The notes beneath the pieces are model-generated. The model saw nothing but the letters and a program-made list of their open reading frames with translations, had not been told where the DNA came from and did no database searches. Shown here one piece after another: positions 2,737-61,598 of a stretch of DNA of 64,000 bases. Source of the DNA: a virus (lineage: Duplodnaviria; Caudoviricetes); IMG/VR virus record IMGVR_UViG_3300031993_000027, positions 1 to 64,000 of that record, one strand, 5' to 3'. Each line of letters starts with the position of its first letter. Positions within the stretch are counted from its first letter, which is position 1. The position numbers and the translations under genes were made by a program.

Positions 2737-2765
2737 TCTTAACGAATTATCTCGATTGATTCTTC
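2737..2765 (-). promoter_or_regulatory. phage-specific promoter, GAAGAATCAA-N11-CGTTAAGA
   Basis: One of 7 copies with an identical 11-nt spacer, upstream of an RBS. Confidence 0.75.
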
Positions 2766-3061
2766 GATAGTTTATGCAAACACTTCAAAAGAGCGAACTC
2801 GTTTCTCGTTATCCTCTTTGACAGTCTGTTTAGTCTCCTGACTACCCTGTTAGTCTCACGGATATTCGGATGTTCATTGAGTGACTTAGTTGCTTCGTAT
2901 AAGAGCCTGTCAAACTCTTCAGAATGTCTCTTATTTATCGTCATAAGGCGTTGAGTGATAAGAGACCTTATAAACTCGTTCCTGTCGCTTACAGGCTCTC
3001 CTAGAGCCTCTATACAGTCCCTTATGATATCAGGGTCAAGATTTAATTGTTTTGAAAACAT
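2747..3061 (-). CDS. hypothetical protein
   Basis: 104-aa ORF, coupled to the upstream gene. Confidence 0.6.
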   Translation of the reverse strand: MFSKQLNLDPDIIRDCIEALGEPVSDRNEFIRSLITQRLMTINKRHSEEFDRLLYEATKSLNEHPNIRETNRVVRRLNRLSKRITRNEFALLKCLHKLSKNQSR

Positions 3062-3431
3062 TTTTAATACCGCCTGACTTATAATCCTTCTTATCTAAAG
3101 CCTTTTCGAAATCAACGATTCTCTTTGCTATGCTCGCCCTCTCGCTCTGTGGAATACCTGCCAGTTCCATTGCTTTCTCAAAGGTCTCGTTCTCTATCCT
3201 GTAATAGTGGTGAACAAGAAGTGTCTGTAAAGCCCACTTGCACTCTTCCGTTGTAGGTATCTGAATCGTTTGTCCACCATAGAACTTAATCAGATTAGCA
3301 AAACTCTTGCTGTCGGTCAGGTAAGCCAACTCATTAAGCAGGGCATACTTCGGATTGTCAGAGGAAGCGTACAACAGCACACACATCATTGAAAAGGTAT
3401 CTTCTCTTTTAAGGCTATCCATAATGTCCAT
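3036..3431 (-). CDS. Mor/C-like transcription regulator
   Basis: LIKFYGGQTIQIP resembles the Mor-family FGGxxIYIP motif, followed by a helical C-terminus. Confidence 0.5.
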   Translation of the reverse strand: MDIMDSLKREDTFSMMCVLLYASSDNPKYALLNELAYLTDSKSFANLIKFYGGQTIQIPTTEECKWALQTLLVHHYYRIENETFEKAMELAGIPQSERASIAKRIVDFEKALDKKDYKSGGIKNVFKTIKS

Positions 3432-3432
3432 C

Positions 3433-4107
3433 TTAAAGTCCTCCTAGTGGTTCAACCTGTTCCTTAAAGGATTCCAGTGCAAAGTTTTTTATCACATTAA
3501 ACGATTTGTCTTCTTCGGAATACAGGTCAGATATGATTGCGTCCATAAGGATTCTATATAGCATCCTCGTATAATTCTCGTCCTCTTCGGTCTGATTAAA
3601 ACTCACAAACCTGCTGTTTGCTATTGACAGTGTTAGCGATATTTTTGCGTTCAGATATTCCTTAGTGTCAGGATAGAAGGTTGAGGCTTCCAAGGCTCTG
3701 TCTATCATTCTAGGTATTCCCTCGATAACACTTCTCATACAGATATTGCTTATATCGGGATTATCTATTGAAGAAGCACTGCCCATCCTTATTATGACTT
3801 CTTCAAGGTTAGAGTATTTCCCTGTACAGTCTACTATCCTAGGCTGATAATCTCTCTTCCATATCTTGATGTAGTTATGATACCAAGAATTTATGTATCC
3901 AATCCAAGATATAATATCAAACCTCTTCATGTACATATCGGTTGCCAACAGGTTTGCTACGAGGTCACAATCTTCTTCAGTGTTGAGAAGTTTGTTCCTC
4001 ATTAAGAAGCATTTGCATAAGAAGTGGATGCGTTCATATATCTTAGGGTCGTCAGGGTTTTCTGCCAACATATCCTTGATATTCTGCTCCATCGTAACAA
4101 GTCTCAT
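3433..4107 (-). CDS. hypothetical protein
   Basis: 224-aa ORF with SD, in operon. Confidence 0.65.
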   Translation of the reverse strand: MRLVTMEQNIKDMLAENPDDPKIYERIHFLCKCFLMRNKLLNTEEDCDLVANLLATDMYMKRFDIISWIGYINSWYHNYIKIWKRDYQPRIVDCTGKYSNLEEVIIRMGSASSIDNPDISNICMRSVIEGIPRMIDRALEASTFYPDTKEYLNAKISLTLSIANSRFVSFNQTEEDENYTRMLYRILMDAIISDLYSEEDKSFNVIKNFALESFKEQVEPLGGL

Positions 4108-4108
4108 G

Positions 4109-4666
4109 TCATGCTCCTATCAGATTTCTTTGCAGTCCTGACAGATAATCATAGAGTTTATTTCTGAACTCTTCCTGCTTATCTGCGGTAGTTAGTTCGT
4201 CATACTTCTTAGCAAACAGGAATATCATGTTGTCAGGAAGATTGTAATTGCTCTTCAGATAACCATAGGCTATCTGTCTCTCTTCCTCATAGAACTCTTT
4301 AGGAAGCGGTTTAGTGAATCCGCAGACTTCGGTCTCAAATTCAATCTTACGTTCTATGTCTTCTTCGGTCATGCTTGCTTTCATTATCATATCAACAAGC
4401 CTGTACTTTAATTGGGACACTCCCATACTGTCAACAGCCTGTACATCCTCAATAGCCTTGAATATCTCTTTGGTGGAAGGAAAGTAATCACTCTCCTTTG
4501 CTACCTGACCGCAAGCCTTTATGAAGGTCTCGTCAGGGATATCTCCAAATAACTGCATCCAGTCTGCCGTGAATAAAGCCTTATCTTCTTTAGTCTTATC
4601 TCTGAAGAAATAAGGGAAGTGTGTTTCGAATGTCTTTAACGCTAAAACAACTGTCTCTTCTTTCAT
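4109..4666 (-). CDS. G39P-like helicase loader/inhibitor
   Basis: N-terminal W..LF.D....F..A......YFPS..EI pattern; directly follows the initiator gene. Confidence 0.6.
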   Translation of the reverse strand: MKEETVVLALKTFETHFPYFFRDKTKEDKALFTADWMQLFGDIPDETFIKACGQVAKESDYFPSTKEIFKAIEDVQAVDSMGVSQLKYRLVDMIMKASMTEEDIERKIEFETEVCGFTKPLPKEFYEEERQIAYGYLKSNYNLPDNMIFLFAKKYDELTTADKQEEFRNKLYDYLSGLQRNLIGA

Positions 4667-4675
4667 GTTGTCTCC

Positions 4676-5575
4676 TTACAGTCCACATTCTTTAAGAAAT
4701 GCCTTTTGTTCTTCTTCCGTCATACCACCTGAATGATTGTTAGTAGGCAACGACAGTGGTGTGGAGAACGAAAGTTTAAGTTGCCCATCTATATTTCTTA
4801 ACGATTTTTCGGAATTGATTCTCTTCAACTCGTCACCGAAATAGTCGTTGGAATCTTTTACTTCAAAGAAACCATCCCAACATCTTTCTATGCTCTGATT
4901 GATAATTGCTTCTACCAATCTGACATTATCTCCACCGAGTTTTAAGAGTTTATTTACACTTGTTCTTACTGTTCCTTCTGTCTTCATTTCATATTTCTTG
5001 CCTTTTGCTTTTCTCATTTCAGCAAAATCAAGATATGCCTTAACCAAGTTAGGATTATTTACAAAGATAGGGAAGTCATCTAAGACAGTTTCAACCATAG
5101 ATTTCTTTGCTTTAGTTTCTTTAAATATATTATTATTTTTGTTATTATTTGTGTTATTATTTGGTATTGCTTTGCCCTGTGGGTCACATCCATTTGCCCT
5201 GTGGGTCACATCCATCTGCCCTGTGGGGCAAATGGACAACGAAGGGGTTTCTACGGTTTTTAAATGCAAATCAGCATACCATTTCGTCTTATCACAGGCA
5301 TCATCGTTATAACAGCCTGTCTTTATATATCCCGAATCTTCCAACTTCTTTAGCGAGGTTCTTATCTGCTTTTCAGACATATAAGGAAACTGCTTTTTGT
5401 AAGCCTTAATACTGTTATACGTCCAATAGTATCCGTCATAAAAATTCAAATTATTTTCTTCGTTATGTTCACACCAATAAGAAATATTGGCATAGAGAAT
5501 TGCTGACATTATGCCTACGTCCAAGGCAACATCAGTATCAAAATAATTCTTCCTGTTTTTGTTAGAATCGCTCAT
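4676..5575 (-). CDS. phage replication initiator protein
   Basis: N-terminal winged helix (QFPYMSEKQIRTSLKKLEDSGYI), central iterons and Asn-rich linker, C-terminal IINQSIERCWDGFF domain. Confidence 0.8.
   Translation of the reverse strand: MSDSNKNRKNYFDTDVALDVGIMSAILYANISYWCEHNEENNLNFYDGYYWTYNSIKAYKKQFPYMSEKQIRTSLKKLEDSGYIKTGCYNDDACDKTKWYADLHLKTVETPSLSICPTGQMDVTHRANGCDPQGKAIPNNNTNNNKNNNIFKETKAKKSMVETVLDDFPIFVNNPNLVKAYLDFAEMRKAKGKKYEMKTEGTVRTSVNKLLKLGGDNVRLVEAIINQSIERCWDGFFEVKDSNDYFGDELKRINSEKSLRNIDGQLKLSFSTPLSLPTNNHSGGMTEEEQKAFLKECGL
5125..5236. repeat. putative replication origin: three 22-bp iterons plus AT-rich tract
   Basis: TTTGCCCTGTGGGTCACATCCA at 5171 and 5193, degenerate copy at 5215; AT-rich 5125-5165; lies inside the initiator gene, as in lambda O. 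Confidence 0.75.
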
Positions 5576-5578
5576 ACA

Positions 5579-6274
5579 TTAGTTCTCCTGTTCCTTATAT
5601 TTCTTCTCAAATGCCTCCCACGCTTCATCCGTACCTATGTTATCAGCAACAGCGTAATCTATTGCTTTTATGACTTCGTTTATAGGAAGGTCGGAACTAT
5701 ACCACTCTCCGTCCAACCTGTATCCAAGTTTCGTGTATGTGTTGTGCATCCTTTGTTCAATATCAAAAGCAACATCGCTTTCAATCTTATAGATTAGTTC
5801 AAGAGGGAATGGTCTTGTGTCAAGTTGCGACATTCTTTTCTCTACGTTGATAGAATATCCTATTTTATATTTATCAGCGCACTTCAATATATACACAAAT
5901 CCTTTATTCCTAATCTTTTCTTGTTTTAAATTTGTTGGAAAATCAGAATCATTATTTTCTATCAATTCTGTTTTTAAAAAAGTAGTATAAAAGAACATCC
6001 TACCATTCGGTGTTTCTAAGGACAAGCAATCTATAAAATTGCTATTATAGAGACACTTTAAACATTCGATAATTTTCTCGTTAGAAATATAAGGTATAGA
6101 ATCTTTAACATCTTCAAGAGTTACGCTTGCGTATATCAGACCGTCTATAATCTTCTTTTTTGCTTTACTCATTACGCACCAACGTTTTAGAAAATGGTAA
6201 ACTATGGAAGCCTCTATCCCAATTTTCATAGCATCAACTTCAATTTCGTGTTCAATTCCAAAGCAATATCCCAT
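5579..6274 (-). CDS. GIY-YIG (T5orf172/MUG113-like) nuclease with initiator-like N-terminal domain
   Basis: GFVYILKCADKYKIGYS..VEKRMSQL...EQRMH...GEWY. Confidence 0.75.
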   Translation of the reverse strand: MGYCFGIEHEIEVDAMKIGIEASIVYHFLKRWCVMSKAKKKIIDGLIYASVTLEDVKDSIPYISNEKIIECLKCLYNSNFIDCLSLETPNGRMFFYTTFLKTELIENNDSDFPTNLKQEKIRNKGFVYILKCADKYKIGYSINVEKRMSQLDTRPFPLELIYKIESDVAFDIEQRMHNTYTKLGYRLDGEWYSSDLPINEVIKAIDYAVADNIGTDEAWEAFEKKYKEQEN

Positions 6275-6350
6275 AAAAACCTCCCATATCTAGTGGTATT
6301 TTTTTGTGCAAACCCCACATATAGTTGCCTTAAACAACCGAAAAAAGGGT

Positions 6351-6435: not shown

Positions 6436-6443
6436 TAGAAATA

Positions 6444-6472: not shown

Positions 6473-6479
6473 GTATCAA

Positions 6480-6910: not shown

Positions 6911-7612
6911 TTATAAATTAAACGGCAGTTCAACGCCATCTTCGTCTATGATAGGTTCAGGCTGTGGTTCGGGCTTTGGCGGTTCTTCTGCCTTTGCCCT
7001 TCTCTTAGCCGAACACTCCATACAGATTGGCACTCCGTACTTCTTCTTAGTAGCCTCGGCTATCTTACTTGCTGATACGCCTTGATGTTCCTTAATCTCA
7101 CCCTTGCAATCAGCACAGATAAGAGGCTCGATAGGCTTTGTAACAGTCGTTGTCTTAACAGTCTGCTTTGGTGCTGATACAGGCGCATAATCTTCGCTAT
7201 GGTCTTCAGGCAAATCCTCTTTGCTGTATACACGCAAGCCTAAACCGTGTCTTGCGATACACTTTGTTGCACACCTCTGAATAGCCTTGGTTACATCAAA
7301 AGAGGTTACGCTGTCCAATGGGATACTCTTATTCCTGTAATCCATGACAGGCAGATACTCAATCTGTTCCAACCCCTTAACAACTACACCAACCTTAACC
7401 CATGCGGTCTTACCGTCAGTATGATAGTTCCATCCATCCTTGTTCTCATAAACAATGATATTAGCATCAGGAAATTGCTTTTTAAGTTCGTTCCACGCAA
7501 AAACCCAAGAGACGTAAGAAAAGCCGTTTCTCTTTTCGGTATAGTCGGTTATGTCTATCTTAGACAGATTCTTAAAAACGTCTGCGTCAATGTAATCCTG
7601 ATAGTTACACAT
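6911..7612 (-). CDS. Sak3/DUF1071-type single-strand annealing recombinase
   Basis: SYVSWVFAW, EYLPVMDYRNKSI, KAIQRCATKCIARHGLGL..Y..EDLP; C-terminal zinc finger; adjacent to ssb. Confidence 0.85.
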   Translation of the reverse strand: MCNYQDYIDADVFKNLSKIDITDYTEKRNGFSYVSWVFAWNELKKQFPDANIIVYENKDGWNYHTDGKTAWVKVGVVVKGLEQIEYLPVMDYRNKSIPLDSVTSFDVTKAIQRCATKCIARHGLGLRVYSKEDLPEDHSEDYAPVSAPKQTVKTTTVTKPIEPLICADCKGEIKEHQGVSASKIAEATKKKYGVPICMECSAKRRAKAEEPPKPEPQPEPIIDEDGVELPFNL

Positions 7613-7850
7613 TATCTTTTACCTCCTTCCATAAGTTCGGATGACGAAGCAAGAAGTTTATCACGTTCCCTGCTTCGGCTAGTGCCACGGCACTGTACGA
7701 AGCCTTATACTTCGTTGTCTTATCATTAGATGTAGAAACAATCCTCTCAAAATGGTCTTTTAGGTCTATGAGTTCATCCCTTACATCTACACCGTCCATT
7801 ATACTAAACAATCTGTCCGTTTTAAGGGACACTTTATTGTTTTCTGTCAT
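7605..7850 (-). CDS. hypothetical protein
   Basis: Coupled ORF with SD. Confidence 0.6.
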   Translation of the reverse strand: MTENNKVSLKTDRLFSIMDGVDVRDELIDLKDHFERIVSTSNDKTTKYKASYSAVALAEAGNVINFLLRHPNLWKEVKDNV

Positions 7851-8937: not shown

Positions 8938-8966
8938 TCTTAACGAATAAGACGGTTTGAATCTCC
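8938..8966 (-). promoter_or_regulatory. phage-specific promoter, GGAGATTCAA-N11-CGTTAAGA
   Basis: Conserved bipartite motif upstream of the sbcD RBS. Confidence 0.8.
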
Positions 8967-8970
8967 GATT

Positions 8971-9043
8971 GTTAGGGTAGTAGCAATTTACACAAACGAC
9001 TACCCTAACTATTGTGCAACTTGTCAACTAGGTATTAGGGTAG
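8971..9043. promoter_or_regulatory. cluster of three CTACCCTA boxes in the divergent intergenic region
   Basis: TAGGGTAG at 8973, CTACCCTA at 9000, TAGGGTAG at 9036. Confidence 0.6.
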
Positions 9044-9107
9044 AATAATGATAATCTTAAATCACACACCAAACAATACAAGATGCAACGCAAATGGAGG
9101 TTTTTCT

Positions 9108-9755
9108 ATGAACGATTTTATTAATGAACATTTTTCCGAGTTAGATAACTATATCAAGTCTGTCGCTAGAAGGTTCTCGTACAGCATCCGTGGAATGGAG
9201 ACTGACGACTTGTATCAGGAACTTTGGCTTGACGTTTGTTCCAAGAACTATACTGAAATGCCTTTGGCGATAACAGCCATCCGTAATAAGGCTAAAGATA
9301 TCTACTTCAAGGAGAAGGTTCATCTTTCCGACAGATATCTTACCGACGACGAAACCCTCTGTGATATCTTCCTCTTGGAAGAAACTTTGGATGAATATCT
9401 CTTCTATATTTCCAACGATGACGAGCATGACAGGGACACTCTCGCTGACATACGCAAGATAGTGGATTCCTTGGATGGTAAGTACAGGAAGTACGTTATC
9501 TGCAAGATGTATCTTGACTGCAATATCGAGGAGTACGAGGACGAGTTCAACAGCATTACTGCTAATCTTCCTAAGAATCAGAAGGACGAACTTCTCGGAC
9601 GTAAAAAGATTGTCAAGAACGATTCACAGAGGAACTTTACTGGTCTCGGTATCGACACCTTGATTTCCAAGTATGTCCTGAATTTCACATCGAAGAACTA
9701 CATCTATACCTTCAAGAGAGACCTGAAGGAGAAGTTCGCACAGGCTCTTGCCTAA
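9108..9755 (+). CDS. ECF-like RNA polymerase sigma factor
   Basis: Region-2-like YIKSVARRF...TDDLYQELWL...AIRNKAKD; region-4-like IRKIVDSLDGKYR; GGAGG SD. Confidence 0.6.
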   Translation: MNDFINEHFSELDNYIKSVARRFSYSIRGMETDDLYQELWLDVCSKNYTEMPLAITAIRNKAKDIYFKEKVHLSDRYLTDDETLCDIFLLEETLDEYLFYISNDDEHDRDTLADIRKIVDSLDGKYRKYVICKMYLDCNIEEYEDEFNSITANLPKNQKDELLGRKKIVKNDSQRNFTGLGIDTLISKYVLNFTSKNYIYTFKRDLKEKFAQALA

Positions 9756-9756
9756 C

Positions 9757-9796: not shown

Positions 9797-9830
9797 TTGT
9801 AAACTTTCTGTTAAGTCTACCCTATACCTG

Positions 9831-9866
9831 TTGACATATACTACCCTACGTGGTAAGGTTAGGGTA
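9831..9866 (+). promoter_or_regulatory. sigmaA promoter with CTACCCTA box
   Basis: TTGACA-N17-TAAGGT with extended TG; boxes at 9817 and 9841, inverted TAGGGTA at 9860. Confidence 0.7.
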
Positions 9867-9897
9867 CAATACTACTATATGTTTAGGAGGAACGCCT

Positions 9898-11582: not shown

Positions 11583-11611
11583 TTGACATATACTACCCTA
11601 TCGCTTATAAT
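11583..11611 (+). promoter_or_regulatory. sigmaA promoter with CTACCCTA box
   Basis: Perfect TTGACA-N17-TATAAT; box at 11593. Confidence 0.85.
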
Positions 11612-11822: not shown

Positions 11823-11987
11823 AATGGATAAGTTTAACAGTTTGATGACCTGCTTTATGTTGGTCTTCTTCACTTCTCTTATGGGAGTTATCTTCCTTTG
11901 GTTCGAGAAGGAAATGGGTGGCAGTCTCATAGACGACCTTAGAAATCTTTTCAGAACCACTGGTGATTCTAAGAAGCAGATTCGTTA
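11823..11987 (+). CDS. small membrane protein (54 aa)
   Basis: AGGAGG SD; hydrophobic N-terminal half. Confidence 0.6.
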
Positions 11988-11990
11988 AGA
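11962..11990 (+). promoter_or_regulatory. phage-specific promoter, GGTGATTCTA-N11-CGTTAAGA
   Basis: Conserved bipartite motif. Confidence 0.7.
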
Positions 11991-12111
11991 GAATTAGGTG
12001 GGAGTGCCTCAACGTGCCGAGGACTTTAAAAGAGGGTGTTCCTTCGCTGTGAATGGCTAGGATTGTAATTGAGACCCGAACCCCCCTTCTCCTTTTAAAT
12101 GCGAGGTGACT

Positions 12112-12396
12112 ATGATGAACGAGATTTTGATTTATCCATATAAGTTCGTAGCCGAAAAGGTTACTACTAACTTGTACTTGATTCGCATATCCAAGTTGAA
12201 GACCGTATGGTTTGAACATCTTCATGGGAGTAAGACCTTCGAGTTTGACCGTGAAGTAGGTTGGATGAAAACAAGTAAGTATTGGGCATTAGATATGCCG
12301 AGACCGTTTGATTACCACGACTTCTATACATGGTGTAAGGAGTGGTTAGAGAATAAGCAGGAGGAACAGAGAAGTGTTGAAACAGAAGTTGTATGA
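12112..12396 (+). CDS. hypothetical protein
   Basis: GAGGTG SD. Confidence 0.6.
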   Translation: MMNEILIYPYKFVAEKVTTNLYLIRISKLKTVWFEHLHGSKTFEFDREVGWMKTSKYWALDMPRPFDYHDFYTWCKEWLENKQEEQRSVETEVV

Positions 12397-12907: not shown

Positions 12908-13171
12908 ATGTACAAGCCACCCATAGAGATAGAATCTTATGATAATTTTATAGAAGAAACGTCTAAGGAATTTGCGAATCAAATTGAAAAAGAGACCTTC
13001 AACGTCATTCAAAGATTCGGTATCGTTGTTGATAGGGAAGAACTCATAAAAGCATTGAGATATGATAGAGATTCCTATACCAAAGGATATAACGATGCTT
13101 TAAAACACGTTTCTAAGAGAGTATCGGAACTTATTGAAGAATGTATGATTAAAACCGAGGAGGGCGAGTAA
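12908..13171 (+). CDS. hypothetical protein
   Basis: AGGAGG SD; DREELIKALRYDRDSYTKGY. Confidence 0.65.
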   Translation: MYKPPIEIESYDNFIEETSKEFANQIEKETFNVIQRFGIVVDREELIKALRYDRDSYTKGYNDALKHVSKRVSELIEECMIKTEEGE

Positions 13172-13455
13172 TGAAACTATTACCATTAGTTTGTAGTCAG
13201 TGTGGGGGTCACTTAGACCCTGAAACCTTCACCTGTAAATCCTGCGGTACATCATTCGTTTCTAAACTGGGCAATCTGACATTCATTCAGGTTGAAGTTG
13301 GAGATATGGCATTTAACCAAGTGAATATGTATATGGAAAAAATACAACAGGAAATAAAAGCCAATGTAGGAGAAGACGAGAAGTTTATCATTCTTCCTAC
13401 AAGAAATGGCATGGGTGCTGTAACGGTAAAGCAGTTTAAGTATTTAAAGGAGTAA
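13171..13455 (+). CDS. zinc-ribbon protein
   Basis: CSQCGG...CKSCGT. Confidence 0.65.
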   Translation: MKLLPLVCSQCGGHLDPETFTCKSCGTSFVSKLGNLTFIQVEVGDMAFNQVNMYMEKIQQEIKANVGEDEKFIILPTRNGMGAVTVKQFKYLKE

Positions 13456-16147: not shown

Positions 16148-16510
16148 GTGTCAAAAGATTATAAAATAGGAGAAGAAATTAAAAACCATGTGTTGGAAGG
16201 TTTGATGGCTTCTTATAACGAAGGTTATGATGATGGTTACAATAAAGGCTATATGGATGCTAAAAGGGATATAACAAAGTCTTTTAGAAAATCCGAATGG
16301 TTTCTTCCTGATGATTCTGAAAAGTGTTGTGTCGCTGAAGAATCTAGCAACAAGCCTCGCTCTTGTTTAAATTGTTTCAACTGTTCAAAAAGAGAAAACT
16401 TGATAGGTCAATGCTTTTGGACTTGTAACTTCGGAGAGGGAGAATTGTTAGGAGACGACGAAAAACAAGTCTGTTCTCACCCTGTCTGCAATTTTTATAT
16501 AGAGTGTTGA
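16148..16510 (+). CDS. hypothetical Cys-rich protein
   Basis: YNEGYDDGYNKGY repeat; AGGAGG SD. Confidence 0.6.
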   Translation: MSKDYKIGEEIKNHVLEGLMASYNEGYDDGYNKGYMDAKRDITKSFRKSEWFLPDDSEKCCVAEESSNKPRSCLNCFNCSKRENLIGQCFWTCNFGEGELLGDDEKQVCSHPVCNFYIEC

Positions 16511-16542
16511 CATATTCTACCCTATCCATTATACTTAGGGTA
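16507..16542 (+). promoter_or_regulatory. sigmaA promoter with CTACCCTA box
   Basis: TTGACA-N17-TATACT; box at 16517, inverted TAGGGTA at 16536. Confidence 0.8.
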
Positions 16543-16568
16543 CACTATTAATTATGGAGGTACGGAAT

Positions 16569-19308: not shown

Positions 19309-19337
19309 TTGACTTAGGCTACCCTATGCTCTATAAT
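19309..19337 (+). promoter_or_regulatory. sigmaA promoter with CTACCCTA box
   Basis: TTGACT-N17-TATAAT; box at 19319. Confidence 0.8.
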
Positions 19338-20993: not shown

Positions 20994-21179
20994 GTGGAGA
21001 CTAAAGTTACCTACAAGCCAAATGAATTTGCAAAGTTAGTTGGGGTATCGGTAAAGACACTTCAACGTTGGGACAGACAAGGACTTCTTAAAGCGAATCG
21101 TACTGTTTCTAATCGCAGATTCTATACCGAAGAACATTATAAGGTTTGTATGAATCAGTCCAAAGACAAATTATGTTGA
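20994..21179 (+). CDS. truncated IS607-type TnpA (MerR-like HTH only)
   Basis: YKPNEFAKLVGVSVKTLQRWDRQG.L...RT..NRRFYT; no serine recombinase domain. Confidence 0.75.
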   Translation: METKVTYKPNEFAKLVGVSVKTLQRWDRQGLLKANRTVSNRRFYTEEHYKVCMNQSKDKLC

Positions 21180-22315
21180 AGAGTTTTAAGACGGAAATCA
21201 ATCCTACTAAAGAACAGATTGTTTTGATTAACAAAACTATTGGTGTATGCAGATTCATTTATAATTTCTATATTGCTCACAATCAGGAACTCTATAAGAC
21301 TAATCATTCCTTTATGAGTGGAAGAGAATTTAGTGTATGGATGAATAACGAATACCTTCCCGATAATCCTGAATATTCTTGGATTAAGGAAGTCAGTAGC
21401 AAGTCAGTTAAACAATCTATAATGAATGGATATGAAGCCTTTTCAAAGTTCTTTCAAGGTAAGAGCAGATTTCCAAGATTCAAAAAGAAACATCAAGACC
21501 TTGTGAAGATGTACTTTGTGAAAACTAATCCTACTGATTGTTATTGTGAAAGACACAGAATAAAGATACCTACTCTTGGTTGGGTAAGACTTAAAGAAAA
21601 AGGATACATACCACTAACTAAGAACGATTATGTAATAAGAAGTGGAACTATTTCTAAACAGGCAGGTCGTTACTATGTATCAGCCATTGTAGAAATCCCT
21701 GACAAGATAGTTAACGAATATTCTGAAGGTATAGGAATAGATTTAGGTATAAAAGACCTAGCAATAATATCCACAGGACAATCTTTTAAGAACATTAACA
21801 AGAGTTCAAATGTAAGAAAGTTAGAAAAGAGATTAAAGAGAGAACAAAGAAGGTTATCTCGTAAACAAATAAAAAAGAAAGGAGAAGTTGCTCAAAACAG
21901 AGAAAAGCAAAGACTGAAGGTACAGAAACTTCATCAAAGGATATCTAATATCCGTACAGACTACATTAACAAGACAATAGTAGAGATAGTGAAAACCAAA
22001 CCATCTTATATAACTATTGAAGACCTTAATGTAAAGGGAATGATGAAGAATAAGCATCTTTCAAAGGCTGTATCGTCACAAAGGTTCTATGAGTTTAGAA
22101 CAAAACTAAAAAGCAAATGTGACGAGTACAGAATAGAGTTAAGAATAGCAGACAGGTTTTATCCTTCTTCCAAGACTTGTAACTCTTGTGGAAGAATAAA
22201 CAAGACTTTAAAGTTGTCTGATAGAATCTTCAAATGTGAATGTGGATACATAGCAGATAGAGATTTCAATGCTAGTCTTAACTTGAAGGATTTGAAAATC
22301 TATACAGTAGCATAG
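21173..22315 (+). CDS. tnpB: TnpB RNA-guided endonuclease
   Basis: N-terminal HTH; RuvC motifs GIDLG, IEDL, DRDFNAS; zinc finger CNSCG...CECG. Confidence 0.95.
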   Translation: MLKSFKTEINPTKEQIVLINKTIGVCRFIYNFYIAHNQELYKTNHSFMSGREFSVWMNNEYLPDNPEYSWIKEVSSKSVKQSIMNGYEAFSKFFQGKSRFPRFKKKHQDLVKMYFVKTNPTDCYCERHRIKIPTLGWVRLKEKGYIPLTKNDYVIRSGTISKQAGRYYVSAIVEIPDKIVNEYSEGIGIDLGIKDLAIISTGQSFKNINKSSNVRKLEKRLKREQRRLSRKQIKKKGEVAQNREKQRLKVQKLHQRISNIRTDYINKTIVEIVKTKPSYITIEDLNVKGMMKNKHLSKAVSSQRFYEFRTKLKSKCDEYRIELRIADRFYPSSKTCNSCGRINKTLKLSDRIFKCECGYIADRDFNASLNLKDLKIYTVA

Positions 22316-22494
22316 GCAAGCATTTATAGATATGTACCGATGGTCAGTCGGGAATTTACGACTGTGGAGTGTACAAGAACTTGTGAGTAGATTACTTAGT
22401 AATCAAAAGCATACACGTTGAAACAGTAAGAAGTATCCGTGAGGACTTCATTTCTCATATATTTGAGTGACAGGTGTAGATTTAATAACTGTTT
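22316..22494 (+). ncRNA. TnpB omegaRNA scaffold plus about 20-nt guide (from 22475)
   Basis: About 160-nt structured region after the tnpB stop; boundaries inferred. Confidence 0.6.
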
Positions 22495-22504
22495 TTCGTT
22501 TAGA
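22476..22504 (+). promoter_or_regulatory. phage-specific promoter, GTAGATTTAA-N11-CGTTTAGA
   Basis: Variant of the bipartite motif, upstream of the sbcC operon. Confidence 0.65.
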
Positions 22505-22537: not shown

Positions 22538-22744
22538 ATGGAAAACTCAAACGAAAGCAAGAACAATATAATTCAGTTAACCGAAAAGGACTACGTAAAT
22601 CTCTTTGCTTGGATATCCTTGCTTGAAAACAGAGTAGAGGTTTTAGAGAAGGAACTTGGTATCCTTAATAACACTCCGAGACCGAAAACTCTTTCAAAGG
22701 TTCGTATCTACGAAGAAACAGCCAAGTCGGAGGTTAACGCATGA
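22538..22744 (+). CDS. hypothetical protein
   Basis: GAGGGG SD; ATGA-coupled to sbcC. Confidence 0.55.
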   Translation: MENSNESKNNIIQLTEKDYVNLFAWISLLENRVEVLEKELGILNNTPRPKTLSKVRIYEETAKSEVNA

Positions 22745-24486
22745 ATATAAGATTTACGAAACTCGTTATCGAGGGTTTCCAATCTATCGGGAGCAGAGAA
22801 GAACTTGACCTCGAAGGGCAGGGCATAACAATCATCAAAGGTATCAACGAATATGAAAAAAAGGCTTCAAGTAACGGCACAGGAAAGTCGAGTACGGTAG
22901 AGGCATTAAATTGGTGTTTGTTCGGTAAGACCTCGGCAGGTGTTACCAACGTCACAAACCGTTATTATCCGAACGGATGCTTCGTATCCGTAGAGTTCCA
23001 TAAGGACAGCGAGAAATACCTCATAGAACGCTTCCTAGACCACAAGGAACGCAAGACAGGTATTTCCTTATTCTGTAATGGTCTCGACCTGTCGTGCCGT
23101 AATAAGAGCGATACAGACAAGTTGATTAAGGAGAAGGTGCTTCCATTCAATCAAGATGTATTCTTATCGACAATCTTCCTGTCGCAAGGATTCAGTGGCA
23201 GGTTGTCCCTGCTCACACCTACGGCTCGTAAAGAGAGATTAGAAGTGCTCGCAAATATCGACGAGAGAATCACCGCTTTCAAAGAGCAGGTCAATAATAA
23301 AAAGTCCGATTATTCGGACAGTTTAAGAGAGTGTGATAAGCAGGTCTCATACATCAACGGTCAACTTGATTCGGTCATCAGGAACAAAGAGAATGCCGAG
23401 AAGTTGAAGGAAAAGTCAGTGGATATTCCCGACCTCGACGTTGATGAAGTTACGGCTAAAATGAATGAATTAGAGAAGACCATCGGAGACCTTAAAGAAG
23501 ATTCTAAGAACTACTCCGAGAAGATTAACAAGTGCGAGTATCAGTATTCCTCGTTGAACATTGAGAAGGACAGGATTAACAGAGATAAGAATAAACTTGA
23601 AGTACAGTTGAACGCTGTCGGAGAATCCTTCGAGTGCCCGACCTGTCATCAGACCGTGAGTGCGGAACTCGGAGAAGAAATCAAAGCGGATATCGAAGAG
23701 AAGATATCTGATTTGGAGGATGAAATCTTTGACAAGTCCGAACAGATAATGCTCGTTGAATCAGACCTTATGACTTACAGAAGAAATTCTGAAGACGTGA
23801 ATAACAGGCTTAACGCTATGTCTAAGACCCATAAGGAACTCACAGAGAAGATGTATGCCTATAACAAGGCGGTAAGAGAAAATGCCACCTTGCAGGGTCA
23901 ATTAGCGAACCTCGCAAATATCAGTGAGTTAGAAAAGAATATCCTCGACCTTAACTCACAGATTCAGGAGGTCAACGACAAGAGGGGAGAAGTAGAGATT
24001 GACTATAACATCACCGACCATATCCTGAAGTTGATTACCAAAGAGTTCAGGACATATCTGTTGTCAGGCATCATCGAGTACATGAATCAGAAGTTACAGA
24101 AGTATTCGGAATATCTCTTCGAAAACTCCGATGACAAGATTTGGGTCGATGCAGATACGTCTAAGTTGACCATCATGCTCAATGACAGTCTCTATGAGAG
24201 TTTGTCAGGCGGTGAGAAGAAAAAGGTTGACCTTTCCCTTGTCTTGGCACAGAGAGACCTTGCCCTGAAGGTGTCAGGCTTTACCTGTAATCTCATGGTC
24301 TGTGATGAAATATTGGAGAACTGCGACGAGGTTGCTTCCAACGTCTGCCTTAAACTCTTGAACGACGTATCAGAAGAAATCGAATCTGTATACCTGATTT
24401 CACACAATAACTACTCCCTGCCTATTGATAACACAATCACTGTTATCAAAGGAAGTGACAGAATTTCAAGAATTTCTTACAGTTAA
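22741..24486 (+). CDS. SbcC/Rad50 (gp46-like) ATPase
   Basis: NGTGKS Walker A, coiled coils, CPTC zinc hook, LSGGE signature, VCDE Walker B, ISH. Confidence 0.9.
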   Translation: MNIRFTKLVIEGFQSIGSREELDLEGQGITIIKGINEYEKKASSNGTGKSSTVEALNWCLFGKTSAGVTNVTNRYYPNGCFVSVEFHKDSEKYLIERFLDHKERKTGISLFCNGLDLSCRNKSDTDKLIKEKVLPFNQDVFLSTIFLSQGFSGRLSLLTPTARKERLEVLANIDERITAFKEQVNNKKSDYSDSLRECDKQVSYINGQLDSVIRNKENAEKLKEKSVDIPDLDVDEVTAKMNELEKTIGDLKEDSKNYSEKINKCEYQYSSLNIEKDRINRDKNKLEVQLNAVGESFECPTCHQTVSAELGEEIKADIEEKISDLEDEIFDKSEQIMLVESDLMTYRRNSEDVNNRLNAMSKTHKELTEKMYAYNKAVRENATLQGQLANLANISELEKNILDLNSQIQEVNDKRGEVEIDYNITDHILKLITKEFRTYLLSGIIEYMNQKLQKYSEYLFENSDDKIWVDADTSKLTIMLNDSLYESLSGGEKKKVDLSLVLAQRDLALKVSGFTCNLMVCDEILENCDEVASNVCLKLLNDVSEEIESVYLISHNNYSLPIDNTITVIKGSDRISRISYS

Positions 24487-24488: not shown

Positions 24489-24517
24489 GGAGATTCAATC
24501 TCTACTTACCGTTAAGA
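24489..24517 (+). promoter_or_regulatory. phage-specific promoter, GGAGATTCAA-N11-CGTTAAGA
   Basis: Exact consensus copy. Confidence 0.8.
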
Positions 24518-55761: not shown

Positions 55762-55866
55762 GGAAAACCCCTTACCACGTTTGCAATGGTAAGGGGTTCA
55801 AGGAGAATAGTATGAGATATAAGAGTTGGATAGTGACTTATTCAAGTGACCTTTTTATCGGTCAGG
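55762..55866 (-). ncRNA. candidate ~100-nt small RNA
   Basis: Extended -10 TGGTATAAT at 55870-55878, 5' hairpin, anti-SD/anti-AUG segment, 12-bp terminator stem at 55766-55798. Confidence 0.5.
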
Positions 55867-55987
55867 TACATTATACCATAAGTTTAACTGTTCTGCTACC
55901 TGCCTAGAGTAAAGTTTTCTCGATGAAAGGGGGGTTGTCCTTTCTATGTGTTTTTGTCATCTAGGCAAGTAACACAGCCTTTAACTG

Positions 55988-56215
55988 TCAGTCAGGATTA
56001 AATCTAACCTCGAATCTATCCTGCGGAGGATAACCGCAATTCCCACAATCGTCTACAAGGATAAGATAACCCTCGGAGGAAATATACCAATCGTCGATAT
56101 CACAGTAGATAAGGTTGGACTGTTTAAACCACTTCTCTTTGAAGATGTGATTATGGTCGAAGATAGGTTCTTTGCCTGTCCTCTTGTCTATAACGATGAA
56201 TGATAACTTAGCCAT
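55988..56215 (-). CDS. hypothetical protein
   Basis: LIYCDIDDW.I..EG.L.LVDDCGN. Confidence 0.65.
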   Translation of the reverse strand: MAKLSFIVIDKRTGKEPIFDHNHIFKEKWFKQSNLIYCDIDDWYISSEGYLILVDDCGNCGYPPQDRFEVRFNPD

Positions 56216-56889: not shown

Positions 56890-56918
56890 TCTTAACGAAT
56901 GTTTAGGATTGAATCTCC
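56890..56918 (-). promoter_or_regulatory. phage-specific promoter, GGAGATTCAA-N11-CGTTAAGA
   Basis: Exact consensus copy. Confidence 0.8.
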
Positions 56919-57712
56919 TCTTTAGGAGCGAGTATTACCTTTTCAGGTTCATCAGGAACGGTATAAGGGAATGTTACCTCTACACGGCTTTGTCCACTCT
57001 GAAACCATGACTTGCCACCATCATCAGAAAATACCTTGCCCTCTATGTCATAGGCTTTGCCATCCTTGTCTTTGAACACAGAAGAATATCTCTTGTTCTG
57101 ATAATGTCCGTTTGTTATCTCTCCCCATTCGTCATCCTCTCCTGTAAGTGGAGATAATGGCTTGAACCTTGCAAGTCTGTTGAAGTAGTCACAGTTAATG
57201 CTGAATCCTGAATGTCCCTGACTGCTGATAACCTTGATAAGAGCGAGAACATCCTTGTTCAGTCTTTCCTGATACTCGTCTCCTATGCGAGTAATCCTAC
57301 GCAACTCACTCTTGGCGTACTTAACAAGATGGTCTTCTTCGTCATAGTAGTCGGTTTCTTCGTCACAATAAGTTCTTTCTTCTTCGTCTTCTTCTTCATC
57401 AAAGTCTTCGTCATCTTCATATTCAACTTTGCGCACTCTCATTAGTTCTTTACCGTTTTTCGCTTTTTCCTCTTCTTCGGTATCAACTAATCTTCTGCAA
57501 AGGTCTTGAAGTTCAGAAAATGTTTCCCTTTTGTCTGTCCTAAAATCGACATGATACCATCCGCAATCATAAGTTATTGAAAAAGACGAATACTTTTCCT
57601 TGAAAACCTCTTTGCAGAATTTTTCTACCGTTTCTAAAGAATCTTCACATTCGGTATGAAACTCAATACAATACCTGTTGGTTGATTCATATGATGTTCT
57701 AAAAAATGACAT
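56903..57712 (-). CDS. hypothetical protein (duplicated N-terminal motif, acidic linker, C-terminal domain)
   Basis: QGHSGFS..PLSPLTGEDDEW..YQNKR. Confidence 0.7.
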   Translation of the reverse strand: MSFFRTSYESTNRYCIEFHTECEDSLETVEKFCKEVFKEKYSSFSITYDCGWYHVDFRTDKRETFSELQDLCRRLVDTEEEEKAKNGKELMRVRKVEYEDDEDFDEEEDEEERTYCDEETDYYDEEDHLVKYAKSELRRITRIGDEYQERLNKDVLALIKVISSQGHSGFSINCDYFNRLARFKPLSPLTGEDDEWGEITNGHYQNKRYSSVFKDKDGKAYDIEGKVFSDDGGKSWFQSGQSRVEVTFPYTVPDEPEKVILAPKEEIQS

Positions 57713-58011: not shown

Positions 58012-58012
58012 A

Positions 58013-58336
58013 TTACCTCCTACAATAATAGTGTTCACACTTCGTTGCGTCTAAGGGTACTATTGTTCTCATACAGGCACATCCGAATCCGTGGTCATCA
58101 AGCCATTCCCACTCTGTACAGGTCTCACAGGAAGGGAATACAAGTTGTATTTCAAGAACAGGACGACCCCAAGCATCTACCGAGAGAGTGTATTTCTTTA
58201 CATAAGCCTCATAATAGTTCTTAGGAACGTCGTTTATTACACCGTCGAAAAAGAAGTTTCTCCCTCTTCCAATATCAACGGTTATCGACACAACAGTATA
58301 TTCATCAAAGGGTTTAAAGATTTGTTCTAACGTCAT
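58013..58336 (-). CDS. hypothetical protein
   Basis: GAGGA SD. Confidence 0.55.
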   Translation of the reverse strand: MTLEQIFKPFDEYTVVSITVDIGRGRNFFFDGVINDVPKNYYEAYVKKYTLSVDAWGRPVLEIQLVFPSCETCTEWEWLDDHGFGCACMRTIVPLDATKCEHYYCRR

Positions 58337-58337
58337 A

Positions 58338-58766
58338 TTAGTATTCCTCGTACTGTATAGAATAATTCCATGACATAGGATAACTCCATGATAAACCGCC
58401 TCTTTCAAGTTCGAAGCGTTCTATCAGGTATTCCCTGACCACATTTTCTTCCTCATAATCAAGAAGAATATCTATGTGACGAATCCCTCCAATCATCCCT
58501 CTAAAATTCATTAGACGAACTAATCTACTTAAAGAGATAGAAAGTTCTGATTCTTTTAAGTCCTTTAAGTTTGTTATCCACTCTGCCACTTGTTCATATA
58601 AATCGGCTTTATCACGGTATTCTTTTACTATGGGATTATATGGAGATAGAGGACTTGCTATTCTTTCTCCCATGGGTCTGTATCTTTCCGCATCTTCTCT
58701 AAGTTTTTCAGCCTTTTTTATAAAGTATTTGACCGCAAAGTATTTGATTGTTTCTTCGTTATCCAT
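58338..58766 (-). CDS. hypothetical protein
   Basis: Coupled ORF. Confidence 0.6.
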   Translation of the reverse strand: MDNEETIKYFAVKYFIKKAEKLREDAERYRPMGERIASPLSPYNPIVKEYRDKADLYEQVAEWITNLKDLKESELSISLSRLVRLMNFRGMIGGIRHIDILLDYEEENVVREYLIERFELERGGLSWSYPMSWNYSIQYEEY

Positions 58767-59328
58767 TGCTTTCTCCCTTCAAGGCTTCGATTGCCATATC
58801 TATCGCCTCGTTCACTTCTATGTCTTTAGGATATTCGGGAAACGGATATTTAAGAGATTCCAGTGTCTTGATTGCATCTTCTTTTGTCGGTAACAAATCT
58901 TCCTGTTCGAATCCTTCTCCATAACCGTAATCGTATTCACACTTCCATACAGTACCATCAGGTTCAATCATTTCTGCAATATAAGGATTATTAGTGTTGT
59001 ATCCTGAAGTAAATCTGAACTTGTAGTCATTGTACTCAAACTCAACTTCACCATAATCCCACCAATCCATTTCGTCGGTCTTATACGAAATCTCTTTAAT
59101 TCCGTCTTCGGTGAGTTTGTAGATTTCAGGAAGACCTTGTTTGTGGCAAAGAACACGAATGTTTCCATCACCCAAAATTCCATGATGGATATGGTCTATC
59201 CAATCTATAAGAATTTCGTTACTTACCTTAAAAGTCCCTTCATTGGGTTTAAACAATGGAACGTCCTCTTTATCTTTGCGACGTTCACCGTTCTTGTAAA
59301 CAAAAGCACCATAATCGCAATAAGCCAT
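58759..59328 (-). CDS. hypothetical protein
   Basis: MAYCDYGAFVYKNGERR.DKED; GAGGAGG SD. Confidence 0.7.
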   Translation of the reverse strand: MAYCDYGAFVYKNGERRKDKEDVPLFKPNEGTFKVSNEILIDWIDHIHHGILGDGNIRVLCHKQGLPEIYKLTEDGIKEISYKTDEMDWWDYGEVEFEYNDYKFRFTSGYNTNNPYIAEMIEPDGTVWKCEYDYGYGEGFEQEDLLPTKEDAIKTLESLKYPFPEYPKDIEVNEAIDMAIEALKGESNG

Positions 59329-59367
59329 ATTATTCCTCCTCTTCTTGCCTTGCGTCAATTAGTCGTG

Positions 59368-59646
59368 TCATTCTTTATCACCTCTCATATCTGTACCACA
59401 GTGCCAACAATAAGGAACTTCTATTGAACCCGAATGTATATCACTATGATGACATTTATTGCATTCGTAAAGGTTGTTACCCCCATCGTCGTAATCGGTT
59501 TCTTTTAAAATCCACTCACCTTTTGGTCTTTCATTATAAGGTGTTCCGTTTGCAATAATATTTTGGTCTACTGTGTCCGTTCTGTTAAACACACACTCTC
59601 TGCAAAATTCATAATACCTTTCGGGTATATCAATTATCAGTTTCAT
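59368..59646 (-). CDS. zinc-ribbon accessory protein
   Basis: MKLIIDIPE...GEWI...ECNKC...YCWHCG.DM. Confidence 0.7.
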   Translation of the reverse strand: MKLIIDIPERYYEFCRECVFNRTDTVDQNIIANGTPYNERPKGEWILKETDYDDGGNNLYECNKCHHSDIHSGSIEVPYCWHCGTDMRGDKE

Positions 59647-59830
59647 TGTCTGCCTCCTGTTTTGGGTATACCTGTTCGCCTCCTATCAGAACCTTAACTT
59701 GCTTCTTCTGTTCGGCTTCGAGCAATCCGTATTTGTATCCACGTTCCCATGCTTGCGCTACTATCTGTTCGATTGCCCCCTTCATTCCCTCAAGATTTTT
59801 CAGTTTTGTTTCTGTCTTTGTCTTACTCAT
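59630..59830 (-). CDS. hypothetical protein
   Basis: AGGAGG junction. Confidence 0.6.
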   Translation of the reverse strand: MSKTKTETKLKNLEGMKGAIEQIVAQAWERGYKYGLLEAEQKKQVKVLIGGEQVYPKQEADNETDN

Positions 59831-60104
59831 TGTCTGCCTCCTTTAACCTCTTATTTGTATCACCGTAATCATAACCAACAGGCACTCTCTTTTCTATCCA
59901 ATCGCCTTGCGGTCTTTTTTGACCATCTTCTAAGCCTTGAACATATCCAATATCGAAGTTATCTCTGATTTCAACTGTCGGGGCATTGTCAATCATACCT
60001 AAAACTTCATCTTTCATTATCCAAGTGTTTACACCATCATAAGAATAAGCACATTCTTTAAGCACTTCTTTCAAAGCACTACGGCTTATTAAATCATTGT
60101 TCAT
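59823..60104 (-). CDS. hypothetical protein (MNNDLISR family)
   Basis: DLISRSAL...IDNAPTVE. Confidence 0.7.
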   Translation of the reverse strand: MNNDLISRSALKEVLKECAYSYDGVNTWIMKDEVLGMIDNAPTVEIRDNFDIGYVQGLEDGQKRPQGDWIEKRVPVGYDYGDTNKRLKEADNE

Positions 60105-60288
60105 TGTCTGCCTCCTTCATATCATCAACCAAAGTGTCAATATACAATCTTGTAGTCTTTTTAGTGTGAATATCAGTACAAGCCACATATCCGTTAGTAT
60201 TTTCTATAAGGTGTCCTATTTTGTACTGTCTACCATTAAATTCAAATATTTCGCCTGTGTGCATAAATCCTATGGTTGTTTTACTCAT
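60094..60288 (-). CDS. hypothetical protein
   Basis: Coupled ORF. Confidence 0.6.
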   Translation of the reverse strand: MSKTTIGFMHTGEIFEFNGRQYKIGHLIENTNGYVACTDIHTKKTTRLYIDTLVDDMKEADNEQ

Positions 60289-60671
60289 TCTTCTTTCTCC
60301 TTATATGGTCTTGGTAATTCTTGCCAAGCAACAACTTTTGAATATGAATGGAACTCACTTCCCAAACTACCTAATGTTCGGCTGTCAAATTGTTCTTGCC
60401 AAATACCGAATTGTTCACACCCTTCATCATAACTTCCTATAAATGAATATTCATCTTCTTCGCTTTCATCTATTTTGCCCCATAGTAAGTAATCACCCTC
60501 TTCTTCGGGCAATCTCTCGCTAACAGGAATCCACTCGCCCTTTGTTCTTTCATCATAAGGTTTACCTTTCCTCAGAATATCCCTCATATCAGCACAAAGC
60601 AGAGCAGACCATTGGTTTTCTTCATCAAAACTCTTTTTCATTCCTTCAGGAAGTTCAATTACTAGTTTCAT
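60285..60671 (-). CDS. DUF551-like protein
   Basis: WIPVSERLPE...VVAWQELPRPY. Confidence 0.7.
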   Translation of the reverse strand: MKLVIELPEGMKKSFDEENQWSALLCADMRDILRKGKPYDERTKGEWIPVSERLPEEEGDYLLWGKIDESEEDEYSFIGSYDEGCEQFGIWQEQFDSRTLGSLGSEFHSYSKVVAWQELPRPYKEKEE

Positions 60672-60841
60672 TTTCTTTGCCTCTCATATTCCTTTATCCT
60701 ATCTTCTTCAAGTTCAAGATAGAAACCACATTTTTTGCAATTATGAAACGGATTCCTACAACAACAATAGTCGTGTCCGTAAATATTTGAAAAGAAGTGA
60801 TACAGTTTGAGTTTTATCTTAAAAAACAACGGTTCTTTCAT
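60668..60841 (-). CDS. hypothetical protein (57 aa)
   Basis: GAGGTG SD; ATGA overlap. Confidence 0.5.
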   Translation of the reverse strand: MKEPLFFKIKLKLYHFFSNIYGHDYCCCRNPFHNCKKCGFYLELEEDRIKEYERQRK

Positions 60842-60847
60842 TCTTTA

Positions 60848-61024
60848 TCACCTCTCATACTCTTTTAAAGAAAAATTCATAGTTCCATATTTTTTATATT
60901 TAATATACTGATAAGCATATTCAACCAAAGCACCTATCAATGTTGAATGTTGATAATAATTTGGTTCACCTTGACAACATACTATCACATTGAATTTAGG
61001 GAAATTGCATTTTCTTCGTATCAT
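60848..61024 (-). CDS. small hypothetical protein, paralog of 1..159
   Basis: Near-identical DNA. Confidence 0.6.
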   Translation of the reverse strand: MIRRKCNFPKFNVIVCCQGEPNYYQHSTLIGALVEYAYQYIKYKKYGTMNFSLKEYER

Positions 61025-61110
61025 TCCTTCTCACCCCTTCTTCTTTTAATACCTTCATAAATCATACAAGCAAGCCAACCTGCGAAAAACGATAAGAAAA
61101 TCATCATTAT

Positions 61111-61392
61111 TTACCACCCCAACTTCTCAACAGCCTTATGTCTTATCTCGTCAACATCACTGAACCTGTCTAGGTTTTCAATGATAAACTCTCTGTAACT
61201 GGCAAACCCAACACATCCGTCCTTTGCCATCATATATTCAAAGATACTGTCTTTGTCTATGCCGTAAAGGATATTGTCATTTAACAACGCACAGGCTATG
61301 TCTAATGCTCTATCGAGTTTATCGGCTCTTGACATTTCGTATTCTCTTTCATATGAAGGATTGTACACAGTACCTAATATCTTTTCGTTCAT
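61111..61392 (-). CDS. hypothetical protein
   Basis: GAGGA SD. Confidence 0.6.
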   Translation of the reverse strand: MNEKILGTVYNPSYEREYEMSRADKLDRALDIACALLNDNILYGIDKDSIFEYMMAKDGCVGFASYREFIIENLDRFSDVDEIRHKAVEKLGW

Positions 61393-61556
61393 TTATCCTG
61401 TTCCTCTCTCTCGTTGTTCAGTTCCTTTAACAACTTGACTACAAAACCAAGTTCTTTAGCAACTAGGGAATAATGCGGATGTTTTCTTGCCTGACTGTTA
61501 TAGAACAGCAACTTGGCTTCATAAAGTCTTATCTCTTTGTCTAAATCAATCATCAT
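61389..61556 (-). CDS. hypothetical protein (55 aa)
   Basis: AGGAG SD directly after the promoter. Confidence 0.5.
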   Translation of the reverse strand: MMIDLDKEIRLYEAKLLFYNSQARKHPHYSLVAKELGFVVKLLKELNNEREEQDK

Positions 61557-61569
61557 AGTCTCCTACTTT

Positions 61570-61598
61570 TCTTAACGGATTTCGAGAATTAAATCTTC
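61570..61598 (-). promoter_or_regulatory. phage-specific promoter, GAAGATTTAA-N11-CGTTAAGA
   Basis: Conserved bipartite motif. Confidence 0.75.

Follow-up and report, generated by a model that had tools for sequence, protein, structure and literature searches.

Features of the window

The window analysed in this work is a 64-kb stretch (positions 1 to 64,000) of a virus of the class Caudoviricetes; it is the first part of a 127,491-bp IMG/VR record (IMGVR_UViG_3300031993_000027, G000 in the comparisons below), which has a 97-bp terminal repeat and a G+C content of 39%. It contains repeated copies of a bipartite motif, GDWGAWTYWA-N11-CGTTWAGA, and, next to one of these copies, the gene of a putative sigma factor, which had been proposed to read them. 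The open reading frames (ORFs) and other features on which the argument depends are listed here.

2737..2765, minus strand: motif copy, 19 nt before a 50-aa ORF, which is followed by a stand-alone paralogue of the terminase nuclease domain (1816-2568)
4796..4824, minus strand: motif copy with one mismatch, within the 3' end of gene 4676-5575 and 129 nt before gene 4109-4666
8914 down to about 5579, minus strand: unit behind the 8938 copy, consisting of sbcD, a small ORF, Sak, SSB and a T5orf172 gene
8938..8966, minus strand: motif copy with the exact consensus, 23 nt before the start of sbcD
9021..9049, plus strand: putative sigmaA-type promoter of the sigma-like gene, TTGTCA-17-AATAAT, scoring 10 of 12
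9108..9755, plus strand: gene of a 215-aa protein, probably a divergent member of the sigma-70 family (extracytoplasmic function (ECF)-like), the proposed reader of the motif
11962..11990, plus strand: motif copy, followed by a leader of about 122 nt and the ATG at 12113, at the head of a series of small genes that extends to 13171-13455
22476..22504, plus strand: motif copy before a small ORF and sbcC (22741-24486), directly after a TnpB omega-RNA
24489..24517, plus strand: motif copy with the exact consensus, 22 nt before a 59-aa ORF
55765..55799, minus strand: strong intrinsic-terminator-like hairpin (14 pairs and a T run), which closes the 56890 unit before the head genes
56890..56918, minus strand: motif copy with the exact consensus, which overlaps the 3' end of a Tad3-domain gene and heads four small ORFs (56850-55988)
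61570..61598, minus strand: motif copy, 13 nt before a 55-aa ORF, the first in an array of small accessory genes

The motif class

A pattern scan returned exactly seven exact matches in the window, reproducing all seven sites of the original prediction with their coordinates and strands, and none in 100 dinucleotide-preserving shuffles; the three copies described as having the exact consensus, GGAGATTCAA-N11-CGTTAAGA, were seen at 8938, 24489 and 56890. Because tolerating up to two mismatches adds a single window site, 4796-4824 on the minus strand (0.4 expected), the motif class can be regarded as sharp, without a degenerate tail. The bare 3' box, CGTTWAGA, occurs 11 times in the window vs. 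4.8 expected. When the scan, as had been suggested, was extended to the whole record, it found 12 exact sites (0 expected), to which a position-weight matrix added 74496(-) and 4796(-), bringing the number of sites to 14 in the genome and eight in the window. The spacer is invariably 11 nt.

The copies had been claimed to lie on the coding strand at gene boundaries. This holds for the entire genome: at all 14 sites the orientation of the motif is the direction of the local genes, and the three plus-strand copies are all inside the sole long plus-strand block (9-25 kb). Eleven of the 14 are located 13-50 nt upstream of a start codon that has a good ribosome-binding site of the AGGAG type; at the other three, 22476, 11962 and 4796, the distance to the start is about 33 nt (to an ATG), about 122 nt and 129 nt, respectively. 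The copies frequently overlap the stop codon of the upstream gene, and the one at 74496(-) is directly 3' of a strong terminator hairpin.

Alignment of the sites revealed conservation beyond the earlier pattern, namely aGTG upstream, TT or TC preceding CGTT, and T(A/G)GG beginning 4 nt past AGA, which gives the extended consensus aGTGnAGATT(C/T)AA-N11-CGTT(A/T)AGA-N4-T(A/G)GG. At the 61570 site the start codon is only 13 nt past the 3' box, therefore the 3' box must be the downstream (-10-like) element; the T(A/G)GG block is likely to be the initiation region. The fixed spacing, the strict co-orientation and the placement just upstream of ribosome-binding sites are the behaviour of promoters, and we think that the sites are, with very high probability, promoters. 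The CGT in the presumed -10 element, which had been put forward as typical of ECF sigma factors, is to be read as a resemblance to ECF promoters.

Genes behind the motif

Inside the window the motif precedes the sbcD-Sak-SSB unit, sbcC, the duplicate of the terminase nuclease domain and arrays of small uncharacterised genes. The placement of the genes at 8938, 22476 and 61570 agrees with what had been said earlier about sbcD-Sak-SSB, sbcC and the accessory arrays. Copies beyond the window precede genes for a P-loop ATPase, a phosphoesterase, a cell-wall hydrolase and uncharacterised proteins. The further claim that no copy precedes a structural gene is valid in the window, because the terminator at 55799-55765 separates the 56890 operon from the head genes. 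In the rest of the genome, the 111435 copy precedes the cell-wall hydrolase gene. For the recombination genes the label "middle" appears reasonable. Since the copies beyond the window precede genes such as that of the cell-wall hydrolase, the class could also act late, and some of the genes behind the motif could be late-expressed.

The sigma-like protein

The ORF starts at 9108 and not at 9048: all close homologues begin at the Met encoded at 9108. An exhaustive search yielded a homologue family of about 20 representatives with 27-63% identity, and homologues with 54-60% identity are encoded on Logan/ENA contigs of 112,558 and 109,506 bp. The Pfam model Sigma70_r2 was matched by 8 of 24 family members (best 5.7e-7), and the NCBIfam model TIGR02937 (sigma70-ECF) by 17 of the 24 (best 5.9e-9). 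No other sigma-like gene was found in the 127,491-bp genome.

Two AlphaFold models (pLDDT 70 and 80) consist of two helical domains with a disordered or low-confidence linker at about residues 76-107. A protein of 215 aa with two linker-joined domains lacks regions 1.1 and 3, which is the ECF-like layout. Structure prediction had been named as a way to check the sigma assignment, and it gave some support: residues 1-80 (pLDDT about 90 or more in the second model) superpose on domain 2 of RpoE, SigE, SigW, SigR, SigK, sigma-70 and sigma-28 (57-81 residues aligned) with Z 6-7.2 and rmsd 1.9-3.7 Å. Foldseek matches were weak, albeit with many sigma factors among them; in one list the top 22 chains were all sigma factors, with both domains aligned over 130-146 residues (Z 5-7.2), and phiEco32 gp36 (9m7y_F) was among the structural matches (Z 5.0). 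In the family alignment the C-terminal half has the patterns RERxYVV.K.YL and an SGSxRxxK-like helix, and there is a long insertion between the segments resembling regions 4.1 and 4.2; we infer that this half contains a helix-turn-helix equivalent to domain 4.

A tblastn search of 50,697 phage records with the protein, including SPO1-like phages, gave no match, no relatives were found in IMG/VR (with the single sequence or the alignment as query), JGI metagenomes and GTDB genomes, and a sequence-profile search of the PDB with the family was also without a match. Among cultured phages there was no match for the locus (megablast) or for a 501-aa head-module protein of the phage (tblastn). Taken together, the family profiles and the predicted fold support the assignment of the 9108-9755 protein to a divergent sigma-70/ECF-like family.

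Occurrence of the motif elsewhere and comparison with a relative

Searching IMG/VR for the exact motif found nothing, and the 15-base core of the motif had 45 single, chance-like matches there. The exact consensus occurs six times in 185,579 GTDB species genomes, as single, chance-level and unrelated matches, and the exact motif 12 times in JGI metagenomes, again as single matches unrelated to the phage.

The search in relatives, which had also been proposed, was done with one relative, the IMG/VR record G001 (128,410 bp, 32% G+C). G001 and G000 have 72 genes in common (of 207), and their virion proteins are 40-70% identical. In G001 sbcD is still divergent from a positional orthologue of the sigma-like gene, whose product is 26-31% identical to that of G000; none of the other proteins among the 69 shared ones is less conserved (26% vs. 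a median of 55% identity). G001 lacks the G000-type motif class, with one orphan cassette as the only trace, and has a motif of its own, AAATCTAAA-N11-TGTGTT-N4-TATTATAG, present in 11 copies vs. 0.8 expected, of which there are 0 copies in G000. The 11-nt spacing between the main boxes is identical in the two motifs. At four of the G001 sites, the gene behind the motif has an orthologue in G000 that likewise lies behind a copy of the G000 motif (sbcD-sbcC, 7605-7850, 3433-4107 and 13171-13455). A single site serves sbcD and sbcC together in G001, whereas in G000 the two genes, lying 14 kb apart on opposite strands, each have their own copy. Thus the relative has a different class at equivalent positions and a strongly diverged sigma orthologue.

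This pattern is what would be expected if the sigma factor and its promoters had changed together. With somewhat less than even odds, we suggest that sigma and promoter class were re-tuned jointly in one lineage, giving orthogonal pairs with the same 11-nt geometry and the same positions, and that cassettes of about 55 bp are mobile between the phages. The orphan cassette in G001 (114295-114340) shares about 55 bp of homology with the 111435 site of G000, but its flanks and neighbouring genes are unrelated. It was probably imported, because the accessory region in which it lies has genes that are 75-100% identical in both phages, and it may have been left there by an exchange of accessory genes.

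Other promoters and polymerases

The sigma-like gene is transcribed divergently from sbcD, and the motif copy of sbcD is about 140 bp from its start. Around its own putative promoter there are TAGGGTAG boxes at 8973, 9000 and 9036. This promoter belongs to a second, clearly different class of about a dozen TTGAC-N17-TATAAT/TATACT promoters, each with an 8-bp CTACCCTA/TAGGGTAG box. The existence of this separate sigmaA-type class means that the bipartite motif is not merely the local flavour of a housekeeping promoter.

The CTACCCTA/TAGGGTAG box sits in the promoter spacer and is often repeated past the -10. Such promoters are found at 8968-9049, 9817-9871, 11583-11611, 16507-16545, 19309-19337 and 55659 in the window, and at 64521, 69604, 73989, 89099, 90781, 94697 and 100059 further on in the genome. 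Three boxes flank the promoter of the sigma-like gene and the sbcD motif copy, and one is just upstream of the head operon. The box looks like an operator for a putative phage regulator.

Genome searches for a multisubunit polymerase beta subunit and for a MotA homologue were empty. A search for a T7-type polymerase was empty as well, it had no working positive control, and taken alone it is weak evidence. The phage therefore most likely relies on the host polymerase, and the 9108-9755 protein is the only recognisable specificity factor.

No promoter class was found for the main virion operon, which extends from 55.6 to 25.1 kb. Two candidates for the virion genes were tried and rejected: TATAAATA, the T4-type late promoter, precedes genes at none of its six occurrences, and the recurring CTAGG strings, considered as late promoters, are parts of terminator hairpins. 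Footprinting of orthologous upstream regions in the two phages revealed no common box.

Observations at individual sites

The leader behind the 11962 copy (11991-12112, plus strand, about 122 nt) is unusually long and has no Rfam match. Upstream of sbcC there is a TnpB (IS605 OrfB) element at 21146-22474 with a RAGATH-18 omega-RNA (22361-22429, 74 bits). The end of the element abuts the 5' box of the 22476 copy, so that its predicted guide would extend into the sbcC promoter. Two further TnpB genes are located at 77635-78792 and 122544-123632 of the genome, with no motif copy beside either of them.

The stand-alone 250-aa ORF behind the 2737 copy (1816-2568) is a terminase duplicate: a 653-bp segment (1823-2475) is 85% identical to positions 105521-106173 of the genome, which are part of the terminase large-subunit gene. 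Both terminase pieces match a single 1030-aa ORF of G001, and an 847-nt "gap" at 106837-107683 of the genome reads like intein sequence.

The minus-strand gene at 56903-57712 encodes a Tad3 (type I Thoeris inhibitor) domain (E 4e-37) and is 75% identical to a gene of G001. Just upstream of the head operon, on the minus strand at 55765-55990, there is an extended -10 sequence (TGGTATAAT), a leader of about 100 nt and a 14-bp terminator hairpin, which together may represent an attenuator, an antitermination target or a small RNA. Two proteins with BspA-type leucine-rich repeats (LRR_5, with E values as low as 1e-108), each about 980 aa long, are encoded at 100084-103005 and 111462-114410 of the genome, and they hint at a gut or rumen setting of Firmicutes or Bacteroidota.

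Discussion

The reading that we favour is that the motif promoters are recognised by the host RNA polymerase carrying the phage's own divergent ECF-like sigma factor, and we give it a probability of about 0.7. Gene control of this kind is already known in phages; new here are the lineage of the sigma factor and the consensus. The likely course of events, pieced together from sequence features, would be the following. Host RNA polymerase with the host primary sigma factor would transcribe the 9108-9755 gene from its sigmaA-type promoter. The 215-aa, two-domain product would then displace the host sigma factor on the core polymerase. Its domain-4-like C-terminal helix-turn-helix would read the upstream G(G/A)AGATTCAA block and its domain 2 the CGTT, and the transcription start would be expected about 5-9 nt further downstream, within the conserved T(A/G)GG. 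In this way the class would turn on the recombination and repair genes (sbcD, Sak, SSB, sbcC) and the small accessory gene arrays. The sigma dependence, the start sites and the timing of the class are all predictions of this kind.

It is useful to compare the predicted system with phage systems known from experiment. The sigma factors gp36 of phiEco32 and gp47 of Salmonella phage 7-11 have been shown experimentally to have private promoter classes (PMC12276001, PMC8948821). The phiEco32 gp36 promoters have AATGTA at -11.5, and those of 7-11 gp47 have the bipartite consensus GTAAtg-N16-aCTA, at similar genome positions (PMC8948821, PMC12276001). Like G000 and G001, these are related phages with diverged sigma factors, dissimilar consensus sequences and similar positions of the promoters in the genome. 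The likeness extends to a small, distant sigma factor with a sigma-2-like and a sigma-4-like domain, which is expressed from a host-sigma promoter and redirects the host core polymerase. In contrast to these systems, there is no detectable sequence similarity, the consensus is another one, and the main virion operon is not preceded by the class; no gp79-like partner was identified here. The host is probably a Firmicute-like bacterium, unlike the enterobacterial hosts of phiEco32 and 7-11.

With SPO1, where gp28 directs middle and gp33/gp34 late transcription, the phage would share the features of a large myovirus with a low-G+C host and a phage sigma cascade. The -35 sequence of SPO1 middle promoters is AGGAGA, which resembles GGAGA in the 5' box, and the late -35 sequence CGTTAGA resembles the 3' box. 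The differences are that the late geometry does not fit, only one sigma gene was found here, and there is no sequence match.

The ECF promoters of Mycobacterium tuberculosis SigH and SigE and of Streptomyces SigR have the consensus GGAA(T/C)-N16-18-(C)GTT. The GGAGA-N16-CGTT of the phage has the same layout (SigH/SigR type), and the protein resembles group-4 ECF factors in its size of around 200 aa, its two domains, its best HMM (hidden Markov model) match, sigma70-ECF, and its best structural matches, SigH, SigL, SigE, SigK and RpoE. It is unlike them in scoring below the curated cut-offs, in the long insertion between the 4.1-like and 4.2-like segments and in having no anti-sigma partner. 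Moreover, as the putative promoter of the gene is of the sigmaA type, the gene is predicted not to be autoregulated. T4 gp55 is a further parallel, it is a minimal sigma factor that redirects the host polymerase, and the phage has a T4-type portal and head protease. Unlike in the gp55 system, the promoter has two boxes, genes are not preceded by TATAAATA, and the virion operon is avoided.

Several observations weigh against the reading that we favour. The original prediction of a sigma-like protein at 9108..9755 is upheld as far as membership in a divergent sigma-70/ECF-like family and the uniqueness of the gene are concerned, but the scores of the protein itself are below every curated HMM cut-off: 15.2 bits (E 0.019) with Sigma70_r2, for which the cut-off is 24, and 17.6 bits (E 0.0023, residues 6-143) with TIGR02937, for which it is 42.9. 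The Pfam region-4 models (r4, r4_2) have no match anywhere in the genome. The fold matches have Z values of only 5-7, and unrelated helical bundles of similar Z are found among them; as this range permits chance matches between helical bundles, the fold evidence supports the profile evidence and cannot replace it. The co-divergence of sigma factor and motif rests on a single relative, in which, in addition, an orphan cassette of the G000 type persists. Finally, with 32% vs. 39% G+C, a change of host could also explain the change of motif, and a TATTAT block within the G001 motif might be used by the host primary sigma factor.

The last two points lead to other readers of the same promoters. 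If different hosts account for the different motifs, the promoters might be read by an alternative (ECF-type) sigma factor of the host, and the 9108-9755 protein might have another role or another promoter set. A CGTT-type -10 with an upstream box about 16 nt away is the usual ECF layout. We nevertheless find this unlikely: the sigma-like gene of the phage is right beside one of the sites and no other candidate target class for it was found, the consensus is at single, chance level in the GTDB species genomes (6) and the JGI metagenomes (12), and it would be unusual for a lytic-type 127-kb myovirus to need a stress-induced host sigma factor for its recombination genes. There is a similarly small chance that the host primary-sigma holoenzyme is remodelled by a phage activator, as by MotA/AsiA of T4, the upstream box being the activator site. 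The TATTAT block, which is at a fixed position in the G001 class, and the T4-type portal and head protease genes would fit such a mechanism. The G000 alignment has no fixed TAnnnT block past CGTTAAGA, the genome has no MotA_activ match, and the separate sigmaA-type class TTGAC-N17-TATAAT/TATACT looks quite different, all of which argue against an activator of the T4 middle type.

That the sites are not promoters at all is improbable. They could then be operators of a regulator, targets of recombination or of mobile elements, or an RNA signal in 5' leaders, and it is true that one copy abuts the end of the TnpB/omega-RNA element and that the cassette of about 55 bp is found in unrelated gene contexts in the two phages. 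However, only one of the three TnpB copies is near a motif site, the two boxes lack complementarity and the sequence of the spacer is free to vary, while the co-orientation, the position before ribosome-binding sites and the overlap with stop codons are better explained by transcription initiation. The late promoters of SPO1 suggest still another possibility. Their consensus is CGTTAGA-N17-19-GATATT (quoted in PMC3601020), and CGTTAAGA is CGTTAGA with one inserted A, so it could be a -35 box of the type read by gp33/gp34, with the upstream box being something else. We give this very little credence, since at five sites the start codon is 13-23 nt past CGTTAAGA, which leaves no room for a -10 box, a transcription start and a ribosome-binding site, thus the SPO1 late geometry cannot fit. 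Neither is there a conserved GATATT-like -10 box 17-19 nt past the CGTTAGA-like box, and the tblastn search in which the sigma-like protein had no match included SPO1-like phages.

Recognition of the motif promoters by host polymerase with the phage sigma factor, if correct, defines a concrete and testable regulon in an uncultured phage of 127 kb, made up of one sigma gene and 14 promoters with the genes that they serve. G000 and G001 together would represent two compact sigma/promoter sets, which may be mutually orthogonal and useful as parts of synthetic gene circuits. The strategy has already been shown for SPO1, phiEco32, 7-11 and others, and the phage described here would extend it to a very divergent sigma lineage.

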